Positions 13,534-15,977 of a stretch of 64,000 bases of DNA are shown piece after piece. Positions within the stretch are counted from its first letter, which is position 1, and each line of letters starts with the position of its first letter. The notes beneath the pieces are model-generated. The model was not told the origin of the DNA. It ran no database searches and saw nothing but the letters and a program-made list of their open reading frames with translations. Source of the DNA: Escherichia coli (GTDB taxonomy: Bacteria; Pseudomonadota; Gammaproteobacteria; Enterobacterales; Enterobacteriaceae); NCBI RefSeq assembly GCF_003334305.1, contig NZ_QOWS01000004.1; one strand, written 5' to 3'. The position numbers were made by a program, and so were the translations under genes.

Positions 13534-15159
13534 TTAAGCCACTTCCAGCACTTCTTTTGTCGCTTTCACGCCCTGATGCATCAACATCATTAACGCCTCA
13601 AGTACGCCGCCGCCAATCGCCCGGGCTTTATCAGAAACGCTGGTGAAATCAGCCGTTTCACCACGAGGATCGATATCACCAATTTTAAAACCACCGACCA
13701 CTGCCAGGCCGTCGTTCAACAAGCCACGCACCATCCCCGTCAACGGTGCTTTAATTTCATGCTCACCAATCCAGGCAATCACATCGCCCTCTTTCACCAG
13801 ATCGCCTAATTTCACGTTGGATCGCATAATGCCTGCAGCAGGAGCACGGATCACCCGTCGGGTGGTATGCCCCATAATATTGCCAGGAACACCGGTATTC
13901 TCCTGCGCACAACCAGAGTAAATCACCTGACCGAGCCAGTGCCCGCGATTTGTTTCAATTACCGCATGACAATCCTTCCCTGCAGTAAAGCCCGGCCCAA
14001 GCGCGATTGTTACTGGTGCCATATCTGCCCGCGTTCCCAAATTCTGTTTCGCCAGAATAGCGTCCACCACGCAAAGCGGTTTCAGTTCATCAAGCAATGA
14101 ACAGGCGGGATCTGCCATCACAGGGATGAATCCGCGTTCGGTAAGTTTCATCGCTTCCGCAGAGCTGGTTGCCAGGCGAGCAGTAACGCCTTCGACCGTC
14201 ATTTCGCCATCGAACACGGCCTGGGCAAACGCCACGGTACAACGAATCACTGTCGGTTTTTCCACTTCCAGCATGATCACTTTAAAACCCGCATGATACA
14301 GACGTAGCGCCACACCACTGGCGATATCTCCCGCACCGCGAATCACCACTAGCTGGTGTCCGGAAGGATGAGAAGGTTTCATCATCAGCCCACCCGGCGC
14401 GTTATTTTTCACCTGTAATATTTCTGCCAGCACGCTGATGGCGATCTCCTGCGGCGTTTCCGCACCTATGTTGTAACCAACGGGCGCATGTAAACGGGCA
14501 ATATGTTCTTCAGCCACGCCTTTCTCACGCAATTGACGCAGGAAAAGCTGAACCTTGCGGCGACTTGCCAGCAACCCCAACCATGCAATGGGCTTTTCAA
14601 TGAGTTTGTCGAGGGCTTCACGATCCTGATTATTCGTGGCAATCAGGACAAAATTATCAGGGCGAATATCCAGTGCTTCCACTGCCGCACCAAACGACTC
14701 AGCATGGAGAAGCGTGGTTGATGGTGGGAATAGTTCAGGATTGAGGCTTTCGCGATAAATATCGGCAACGGCAATATCAAATCCTAATAGCGCGGCACTC
14801 TGGGCTATCGCCCGGTTGACATGCCCCGCGCCAATCAACACCAGACGTGGACGCATACCATGGACGCTGATAAATACTGACATTGCACCTCCACAATCTG
14901 ACCCGACAGCATCCGCACCGTTACGAGCCATACGTCCATGGAATAATCGCGGCTTACGTTCCTGCAATGCCTGAAGTGACTCTTCAATCACCTTCCGCTC
15001 AACCATTCCGCCACCAATTGTACCGACGATAGAACCATCGGCGCGCACTAACATTTGTGCAGAATGGCGGGGAGTCGAGCCTCGGCTATCAACAATTTGC
15101 GCCATCGCAAACGGACAATTTTGCTCTTCGAGTTTTGCAGCCTCTGTGAAAATATTCAT
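13534..15159 (-). CDS. yqeB: XdhC/CoxI-family molybdenum-hydroxylase accessory protein
   Basis: 541 aa; N-terminal XdhC/CoxI-like domain plus Rossmann-like domain, then a second C-terminal domain. Confidence 0.85.
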   Translation of the reverse strand: MNIFTEAAKLEEQNCPFAMAQIVDSRGSTPRHSAQMLVRADGSIVGTIGGGMVERKVIEESLQALQERKPRLFHGRMARNGADAVGSDCGGAMSVFISVHGMRPRLVLIGAGHVNRAIAQSAALLGFDIAVADIYRESLNPELFPPSTTLLHAESFGAAVEALDIRPDNFVLIATNNQDREALDKLIEKPIAWLGLLASRRKVQLFLRQLREKGVAEEHIARLHAPVGYNIGAETPQEIAISVLAEILQVKNNAPGGLMMKPSHPSGHQLVVIRGAGDIASGVALRLYHAGFKVIMLEVEKPTVIRCTVAFAQAVFDGEMTVEGVTARLATSSAEAMKLTERGFIPVMADPACSLLDELKPLCVVDAILAKQNLGTRADMAPVTIALGPGFTAGKDCHAVIETNRGHWLGQVIYSGCAQENTGVPGNIMGHTTRRVIRAPAAGIMRSNVKLGDLVKEGDVIAWIGEHEIKAPLTGMVRGLLNDGLAVVGGFKIGDIDPRGETADFTSVSDKARAIGGGVLEALMMLMHQGVKATKEVLEVA

Positions 15160-15206
15160 ACCAACCTCAATGGATATCCTTTCAGTAACCCGGAATACCC
15201 GGGCCG

Positions 15207-15977
15207 CTAATTCACAAATCTGCGCGCGATTGCAGGATGTTCTTGTATATCGCCCAGCCAGATTGCCTCTACGTCGTGTTGTTGCAGCGGTTGAAGGAGC
15301 TCGCTTTGTGCAATCGCATTCTCACATTGAGAAAAACGGTTAATGAACCAGACTCGCCGACAACCTTGCGGTACGTTTTTAAACGCCCCCTGAGGGTGGC
15401 GAACCAGCGCAACGAGATCGCTCAGTTGCAAGGTTGCATCAGGTGTTAACCCGGTAATATCAGCAAACTGCGACCAGCGATGGACATTTTCTGTGCTCAC
15501 TTTCGCGCCCAAAGTATGTCCTCCCATCACAGCAATCACGCAGCAACTGCTTTTGGGTATGCAAGGTTCGTGCTCATCAGGCGCTTTTAACGGCATTCCA
15601 CGCGAGCCATCTGCTTCAATGAGAATTACGTCACACTCTGGTCGTTGCACCAGTGCATCAATCGCTTCTGGCGTAAATCCCTGCACTTTTCCCTGGTTCG
15701 CTTTCCAGCTGTGAAAACAAAATGAAATGGGGGATGTAAGAGACGCATGAGGAAGCATGGCGGGATCACGACAGAAAACCACGGGCCAGTGAGACGTTGG
15801 CATAAACATATGTGTCGTCGTCGTGATTAACACACGCCTGCCGCTAGCCTGGAGCAGTTCTGCCAGCCAAAAAAGCAAGCTGGTTTTCCCCCCAGCACCA
15901 ACAACAGAAATCACAGTGGGACGTTTCTGCGCACCTAAATCAATGACTAATGCCGATGGGTCAACTATACTTTTCAC
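15207..15977 (-). CDS. yqeC: P-loop protein, putative molybdenum-hydroxylase accessory factor
   Basis: 256 aa; Walker A motif VVGAGGKTS near the N-terminus. Confidence 0.85.
   Translation of the reverse strand: MKSIVDPSALVIDLGAQKRPTVISVVGAGGKTSLLFWLAELLQASGRRVLITTTTHMFMPTSHWPVVFCRDPAMLPHASLTSPISFCFHSWKANQGKVQGFTPEAIDALVQRPECDVILIEADGSRGMPLKAPDEHEPCIPKSSCCVIAVMGGHTLGAKVSTENVHRWSQFADITGLTPDATLQLSDLVALVRHPQGAFKNVPQGCRRVWFINRFSQCENAIAQSELLQPLQQHDVEAIWLGDIQEHPAIARRFVN

Follow-up and report, generated by a model that had tools for sequence, protein, structure and literature searches.

The genes yqeB and yqeC occupy positions 13,534 to 15,977 of a 64,000-nucleotide stretch of Escherichia coli DNA (contig NZ_QOWS01000004.1; hereafter the window). 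The closest described systems are the two protein families of which their products are the founding E. coli members, TIGR03309 (YqeB, HP1 or EF2563) and TIGR03172 (YqeC, HP2 or EF2564). Haft & Self 2008 found TIGR03309 confined to selD-positive genomes, suggested an accessory role for YqeB, YqeC and YgfJ (now MocA) in selenium-dependent molybdenum hydroxylase systems, and named exactly this stretch of the E. coli genome (PMC2276186). Working with HP1 and HP2, Zhang et al. 2008 came to the same view, described fusions with MobA-related and XdhC proteins, and detected a 30-kDa protein with labile 75Se in E. faecalis (PMC2432076). In surveys of more than 5200 genomes, the combination of SelD, YqeB and YqeC serves as the signature of a ‘Se-cofactor trait’ (PMC5029168). 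A C. difficile strain that lacks yqeB behaves like a selD mutant on xanthine and urate (PMC11448449), and clostridial 2,8-dioxopurine dehydrogenase (DOPDH) prepared from a selD mutant shows no activity (bioRxiv 10.1101/2025.04.24.650524). The E. coli counterpart of DOPDH is XdhD-YgfM, which reduces urate to 2,8-dioxopurine (PMC12507026). Our literature searches turned up no paper on the biochemistry of YqeB or YqeC.

Our analysis of the window favors, with a probability of roughly 0.7, a reading in which yqeB, yqeC and the divergent mocA prepare the molybdopterin cytosine dinucleotide (MCD) cofactor for those hydroxylases of the xanthine oxidase family that bear a labile selenium ligand on their molybdenum. 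The maturation idea itself is already known: it dates from publications of 2008 and has since entered the gene names (RefSeq calls the products ‘selenium-dependent molybdenum cofactor biosynthesis protein YqeB’ and ‘selenium cofactor biosynthesis protein YqeC’). The details added here, namely fold assignments, the lack of conserved cysteines, the fusion partners and the synonymous-site conservation of a sigma-54 promoter, are modest. An earlier note, made from the letters of the window alone, had arrived at a dedicated maturation system for the second molybdenum hydroxylase, possibly involving a labile selenium ligand. That proposal matches the published hypothesis, the gene neighborhoods and fusions described below, and the C. 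difficile yqeB genetics, whereas its limitation to XdhD is not established and XdhABC is a possible further client.

Of the ways in which organisms use selenium, its placement on the molybdenum of these hydroxylases is the one least understood. The enzymes start anaerobic purine and urate breakdown in gut bacteria, a process that bears on human urate balance and gout. Every predicted part is present at the E. coli locus, and an assay for the client (urate to 2,8-dioxopurine) has been available since 2025, making the proposal directly testable in the most tractable organism. The genes concerned are arranged as follows:

13534-15159, minus strand: yqeB coding sequence, ATG start, 541 amino acids; an XdhC-type module fused to a TIGR03309 module (open reading frame list).
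15207-15977, minus strand: yqeC coding sequence, GTG start, 256 amino acids; TIGR03172/PF19842 (open reading frame list).
15978-16079, no strand assigned: intergenic region between the divergent yqeC and mocA, 102 bp.
16080-16658, plus strand: mocA, molybdenum cofactor cytidylyltransferase (MCD form); TIGR03310 at 215 bits against a cut-off of 186; RefSeq.
21460-25106, plus strand: ygfM-xdhD, likely client (urate reductase / 2,8-dioxopurine dehydrogenase; flavin adenine dinucleotide (FAD) and molybdenum/iron-sulfur subunits); open reading frames, annotation and literature.

These coordinates and strands agree with the divergent orientation of mocA and yqeC that had been noted previously. On the plus strand, mocA is followed by ygfK, ssnA, ygfM and xdhD (open reading frame list, RefSeq annotation). 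Between bases 13000 and 16500 the window does not differ from E. coli K-12 derivatives (100% identity), and the yqeB-yqeC stretch was found in 5175 of 5426 complete E. coli genomes (95%), at an identity of at least 95%. The context is the one published for TIGR03309/TIGR03172 systems: yqeC, mocA, an XdhC module, molybdenum hydroxylases and a purine-catabolism cluster. Elsewhere, TIGR03309 is often a stand-alone domain, whereas in E. coli it is fused behind the XdhC module; and in many Firmicutes selD lies adjacent, whereas E. coli MG1655 encodes selD (b1764) at a site not linked to yqeB-yqeC.

YqeB divides into two halves, whose parts map to the window as follows:

14938-15126, minus strand: YqeB residues 12-74, XdhC_CoxI N-terminal domain (PF02625, E 9.8e-20).
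14419-14844, minus strand: YqeB residues 106-247, XdhC Rossmann domain (XdhC_C), presumed molybdenum-cofactor-holding part (PF13478, E 1.3e-32).
13582-14349, minus strand: YqeB residues 271-526, TIGR03309 domain, the selenium-trait marker.
13669-13854, minus strand: YqeB residues 436-497, predicted biotinyl/lipoyl-like barrel-sandwich sub-domain without a modifiable-lysine hairpin.

The two XdhC-family Pfam domains are both significant and in order, and the N-terminal ~250 residues match the solved XdhC-family structures 2we7 (E 3e-27) and 3on5 (E 2e-21). The earlier note had recognized this half as XdhC/CoxI-like and YqeB as a two-domain protein, and both descriptions stand; it had left the C-terminal half uncharacterized, although this half is the selenium-linked marker. 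YqeB falls below the cut-offs of the XdhC equivalog model (TIGR02964, 110.3 against 161.6 bits) and of the aldehyde oxidoreductase (AOR) maturation factor model (NF045664, 201.9 against 350 bits; both NCBIfam). Judged by these scores, it is a member of the XdhC/CoxI family and not an equivalog of either characterized subgroup. Residues 46-54 (about 14998-15024) read GTIGGGMVE, as opposed to GSVSGGCVE in 2we7, and the cysteine of 2we7 is absent. The same motif, GT[IV]GGGxxE, recurs in the XdhC modules that accompany TIGR03309 at other loci (26 partner XdhC proteins; L014-L080), where the cysteine is likewise systematically absent. XdhC-family proteins hold molybdenum-bound molybdopterin or MCD and deliver it to xanthine-oxidase-family apo-enzymes (PMC2997495), and by analogy the N-terminal half of YqeB would be expected to do the same. 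Compared with the XdhC/PaoD/CoxI chaperones, with which it shares both Pfam domains, YqeB adds a 280-residue selenium-linked domain. Apart from PaoD, E. coli has no other XdhC homologue, and YqeB may work for XdhABC as well as for XdhD (PMC2997495).

The C-terminal half of YqeB scores 416 bits against the TIGR03309 cut-off of 220 and covers model positions 1-256 of 256 (NCBIfam). In structural models, a Rossmann-like sub-domain that contains a GAGDxxxG loop is followed by a biotinyl/lipoyl-like barrel, which lacks a carrier lysine, and by a long C-terminal helix; conservation is highest in the GLGPGF...IETxRGHxLGR segment between the Rossmann-like and barrel sub-domains. Most of its invariant residues are Arg, Lys, Asp, Glu or His (R306, K371, E402, R405, H407, R435, R478, K492, D495, R499 and K511). 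No invariant cysteine was found in the TIGR03309 domain alignment, the best column being 75% Cys with Phe in E. coli. A PDB sequence search with this half returned no solved relative beyond generic Rossmann/lipoyl signals, and Foldseek against the PDB gave no global match to the whole domain (TM 0.29 or less), only sub-domain similarities. An hhalign comparison of the Rossmann part with the XdhC Rossmann domain reached a probability of 23%, a value at which specific kinship or duplication is not shown. The barrel has the barrel-sandwich fold in common with biotin carboxyl carrier and lipoyl domains, whereas its hairpin is shortened and carries no Lys at the biotinyl/lipoyl position of the alignment. 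Because the hairpin lysine is absent and the biotinyl/lipoyl Pfam match (PF00364) reaches an E value of only 0.05, we consider the barrel a fold relative rather than a prosthetic-group carrier.

The genomic company of this domain ties it to selenium and to molybdenum hydroxylases. With the C-terminal half of YqeB as query against 1.84 billion representative proteins, we recovered 3244 clusters, 680 of them at E 1e-30 or better, and we inspected 80 TIGR03309 loci from different species within 10 kb of the domain; the species include Gammaproteobacteria, Clostridia, Negativicutes, Spirochaetia, Chloroflexota, Actinomycetota, Bacteroidota, Desulfovibrio and Archaeoglobi. YqeC is encoded near the domain at 61 of the 80 loci, at 51 of them upstream on the same strand; among loci with near-full flanks the proportion is 44 of 52. 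An XdhC-like gene is found at 46 loci. The check named in the earlier note, co-occurrence with selD and molybdenum hydroxylase genes, turned out positive: SelD is encoded nearby at 28 of 80 loci (24 on the same strand downstream, 15 of these at most 500 bp away) and a molybdenum hydroxylase large subunit at 25 of 80. A single-copy gene such as selD would be expected by chance in a 20-kb window in fewer than 1% of cases by our own estimate, and the linkage between TIGR03309 and selD is therefore far beyond chance. Clustering of all open reading frames at these loci further recovered MocA (28 loci), an SclA-type selenocysteine lyase or cysteine desulfurase (TIGR01977; 15 loci), XdhB-like FAD subunits (13 loci), a YedF-like protein (TIGR03527; 10 loci) and urate-pathway enzymes.

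Gene fusions join the same partners. Among the best 150 representatives (phmmer; NCBIfam scan), TIGR03309 stands alone (~270 amino acids) in about 60, is fused to an XdhC module in about 28, to MocA in 14 (phmmer, with three more by the NCBIfam scan) and to YqeC, in both orders, in 10. Occasional fusions involve a ModE N-terminal domain, a ModC ABC ATPase or a MeaB/ArgK-type G3E GTPase (metagenomic P0132, P0154, P0158, P0201 and P0207); when the two MeaB-TIGR03309 proteins were examined as possible replacements of YqeC in their genomes, their contigs proved short or carried unrelated neighbors. YqeC and MocA are themselves fused, in a protein of ~460 amino acids, at three Chloroflexota loci (L047:10825-12222, L053:10825-12237 and L058:3529-4896; L047 and L058 by NCBIfam, L053 inferred from open reading frame clustering plus alignment), and in L047 and L053 the fusion gene lies directly downstream of the TIGR03309 gene.

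YqeC belongs firmly to its family (TIGR03172 at 240.9 bits against a cut-off of 73.05, NCBIfam; Pfam YqeC, PF19842, E 5.5e-42) and carries two nucleotide-binding motifs:

15879-15905, minus strand: YqeC residues 25-33, VVGAGGKTS, P-loop (Walker A-like GxGGK[TS]), invariant in 52 diverse homologues.
15606-15617, minus strand: YqeC residues 121-124, EADG, Walker B/G3-type motif with Glu; E121, D123 and G124 invariant across phyla.

The P-loop had been announced as a Walker A motif; it is present, but in the short form GxGGK[TS] and not as the strict [AG]x4GK[ST]. The fold matches the SIMIBI class (SRP/FtsY, MinD/ParA and UreG/HypB types), with a Walker A motif and an acidic residue in Walker B; signal recognition particle (SRP) GTPases and UreG head the structural matches. 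YqeC is thus a predicted SIMIBI-class P-loop NTPase, and a PDB sequence search returned no solved relative beyond generic P-loop signals. Across the 52 sequences, which span several phyla, the invariant positions are GxGGK[TS], T53, T55, K97, E121-x-D123-G124, K131, E137-P138, H166-R167 and N213, all kept in E. coli; K131, E137 and P138 belong to a conserved K131-x-P-x3-E-P motif. No invariant cysteine was found in these 52 sequences: Cys139 is confined to an enterobacterial/Aeromonas-type clade, with Val elsewhere. An older 183-residue annotation of YqeC (P0008, P0013), still in databases, starts at Met74 and drops the P-loop (residues 1-74 correspond to 15756-15977). We favor the GTG start at 15977 because the upstream P-loop is conserved in every homologue.

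Two groups of SIMIBI proteins invite comparison. The first is the G3E GTPases (UreG, HypB, MeaB/ArgK and CobW), with which YqeC shares the Glu of the Walker B/G3 motif (ExDG). N213 opens an NKx[DE] motif, equivalent to their NKxD-type G4, in 23 of 42 non-gammaproteobacterial YqeC proteins (N[KQ]x[DES] in 36 of 42), whereas E. coli YqeC has NRFS at this place. The role proposed for YqeC, delivery of a cofactor or metal centre, resembles theirs, and it is a MeaB domain that is fused to TIGR03309 in the two metagenomic proteins mentioned above. Pfam cobW was matched weakly by one of 32 YqeC members, and YqeC lacks a family-wide metal-binding Cys/His motif. The second is MobB, like YqeC a small SIMIBI-type P-loop protein whose gene lies beside, and is sometimes fused to, that of a MobA/MocA-family nucleotidyltransferase; MobA/MobB fusion families appear among the NCBIfam matches of the locus proteins. 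When YqeC was aligned with five E. coli SIMIBI proteins by hhalign, MobB ranked first at 87% (ArgK 39%, FtsY 33%, MinD 28%, HypB 4%). A MobB alignment built to strengthen the comparison was low in diversity, with relatives of at least 75% identity only; the profile gained little from it, and only the P-loop segment aligned. YqeC is ~80 residues longer than MobB and has invariant motifs of its own (K97, K131-x-P-x3-E-P and H166-R167). Deletion of mobB in E. coli is silent. So is deletion of yqeC in C. difficile (PMC11448449). That YqeC works like MobB is supported as an analogy, because of its adjacency or fusion to the MobA-family transferase MocA and because of the silent knockout; that it is a MobB is unproven.

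These elements can be assembled into a sequence of steps. As published work shows, MocA adds cytidine monophosphate (CMP) to molybdenum-bound molybdopterin and so yields MCD. This cofactor would then be held by the XdhC-type N-terminal half of YqeB, as its homology to XdhC suggests. The TIGR03309 half would mediate the exchange of a terminal molybdenum ligand for selenium, supplied by SelD as selenophosphate, and its tools for this exchange would be the Rossmann-like nucleotide- or phosphate-binding pocket and the carrier-like barrel. YqeC may act as a nucleotide-gated adaptor or fidelity factor that eases the hand-over among MocA, YqeB and the apo-enzyme, much as MobB helps MobA or UreG and HypB help metal insertion; it would be useful and not strictly essential. 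In E. coli, the clients would be XdhD-YgfM (likely) and XdhABC (possibly). We tentatively sharpen this scheme into a version that dispenses with a cysteine perselenide relay, and to which we give clearly less than even odds. Here, the XdhC half of YqeB would hold MCD, while the C-terminal half would bind selenophosphate or the cofactor dinucleotide through its invariant Arg and Lys residues and pass selenium directly to molybdenum. YqeC, a MobB-like adaptor gated by nucleotide, would link MocA, YqeB and the apo-enzyme, and it would be indispensable only under selenium scarcity. On this version, E. coli would also make a labile Mo=Se centre in XdhD-YgfM, something never observed in the species.

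The invariant charged residues that YqeC carries beyond its nucleotide motifs (K97, K131, E137, H166 and R167) fit a substrate-binding enzyme better than a bare adaptor, and weak P-loop matches of YqeC to Mur ligase, cyanophycin synthetase and LpxK point in the same direction. YqeC could accordingly be a SIMIBI enzyme resembling BioD, PurA or CTP synthase, in which a nucleoside triphosphate activates a small molecule. An oxo or hydroxyl group on the cofactor, or on a selenium carrier, might for instance be phosphorylated, and selenium could then displace the activated group. We regard this as unlikely. An obligatory chemical step is hard to square with a C. difficile yqeC deletion that grows without a phenotype (PMC11448449), the NKxD-like motif of most non-proteobacterial YqeC proteins and the structural matches to SRP GTPases and UreG suggest instead a regulatory GTPase, and the YqeC-MocA fusions parallel those of MobB with MobA.

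Several observations weigh against a selenium-inserting YqeB-YqeC system in E. coli. A labile-selenium enzyme has never been demonstrated in this species, as Haft & Self concede (PMC2276186), and the paper that purifies active E. coli XdhD-YgfM makes no mention of selenium (PMC12507026). In the literature we found no E. coli experiment that ties yqeB, yqeC or selD to XdhD or XdhABC activity. The lack of a phenotype for the C. difficile yqeC deletion belongs here as well (PMC11448449). A persulfide-like relay is not supported, because neither the C-terminal half of YqeB nor YqeC nor the partner XdhC proteins have an invariant cysteine. As for YqeC as a MobB-like adaptor, its G4 motif is degenerate in E. 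coli, hhalign at default settings aligned it with MobB over 32 columns only (P-loop, helix and beta2; probability 77%), and Pfam MobB (PF03205) matched neither E. coli YqeC nor any of 32 diverse members.

The first two of these observations, together with the bona fide XdhC-family module that forms the N-terminal half of YqeB and a review that regards YqeB as a possible shared XdhC-like chaperone (PMC2997495), speak for a sulfur-based explanation. E. coli YqeB would then be an XdhC chaperone of the sulfur type, inserting sulfurated MCD (via IscS) into XdhABC and XdhD, and TIGR03309 and YqeC would have roles unrelated to selenium, such as cofactor binding or stabilization, or would be relics. 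Against it, E. coli keeps all family-invariant TIGR03309 and YqeC residues, and 95% of E. coli genomes retain the pair, with an identity of at least 95%. TIGR03309 is restricted to selD-positive genomes (PMC2276186), 15 of 80 species have a same-strand selD gene at most 500 bp downstream of it, and the orthologous clostridial enzyme requires SelD (bioRxiv 10.1101/2025.04.24.650524). We therefore judge the sulfur-based explanation quite improbable. That yqeB and yqeC are instead accessory factors of selenate or selenite reduction or detoxification and build no selenium-containing cofactor, after the old ‘putative selenate reductase YgfK/YgfM/XdhD’, is an alternative that Haft & Self discussed and that survives in the RefSeq label of YgfK (‘putative selenate reductase subunit’), but it has very little left in its favor, given that the distribution of selD is followed by TIGR03309 and not by the homologues of the ‘selenate reductase’ subunits (PMC2276186).

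The expression of yqeB depends on an element that lies inside yqeC:

15560-15576, minus strand: sigma-54 promoter driving yqeB (TGAGCACGAACCTTGCA); exact match, over codons E135-I140 of the K-x-P-x3-E-P motif of yqeC.

Bonocora et al. mapped this sigma-54 site by chromatin immunoprecipitation sequencing (ChIP-seq) and showed by promoter mutation, reverse-transcription quantitative PCR (RT-qPCR) and Western blot that it drives yqeB; in its absence, the YqeB protein is undetectable (PMC4591121). Because yqeB has its own validated sigma-54 promoter within yqeC, the two genes do not form a simple operon. The promoter has left a trace in codon usage. In an alignment of nine proteobacterial yqeC genes, 46 columns combine an invariant amino acid with degenerate codons, and in only five of these 46 is a single codon used throughout. 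Three of the five fixed codons are the consecutive GAA-CCT-TGC (E137-P138-C139), which form the -12 element, and the sigma-54 promoter is therefore selected at the DNA level. Outside this proteobacterial clade, the position of C139 is Val, and from this distribution the clade-specific cysteine may be tied to, or co-selected with, the embedded promoter.

Further sigma-54 ChIP sites of the same study (PMC4591121) could be placed in the window, upstream of xdhA (1334-1350, plus strand), ygeW (7256-7271, plus strand), ygfK (16892-16907, plus strand) and ygfT (31898-31914, minus strand). Because of these sites, yqeB shares the sigma-54 regulon of the purine/urate genes, and the whole island is under sigma-54 control. 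The gene for an enhancer-binding protein, ygeV, is located in the same island.

Among the neighboring genes, ygfK (16980-20078) bears an outdated RefSeq label, as work from 2025 assigns it to 2,8-dioxopurine reduction in urate degradation (PMC12507026). We rejected the selenate-reductase reading of the neighboring genes on the 2025 urate-pathway biochemistry (PMC12507026; bioRxiv 10.1101/2025.04.24.650524). Simple sigma-70 and terminator scans of the yqeC-mocA spacer gave weak matches only, not above shuffled sequence. At the other end of the locus, the terminator scan identified one further element:

13500-13525, no strand assigned: GC-rich hairpin between the convergent yqeA (arcC) and yqeB, with a 10-bp stem containing eight GC pairs and followed by a T-run.

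From its sequence and its position between the two convergent genes, this hairpin is likely a bidirectional terminator of yqeA (arcC) and yqeB.

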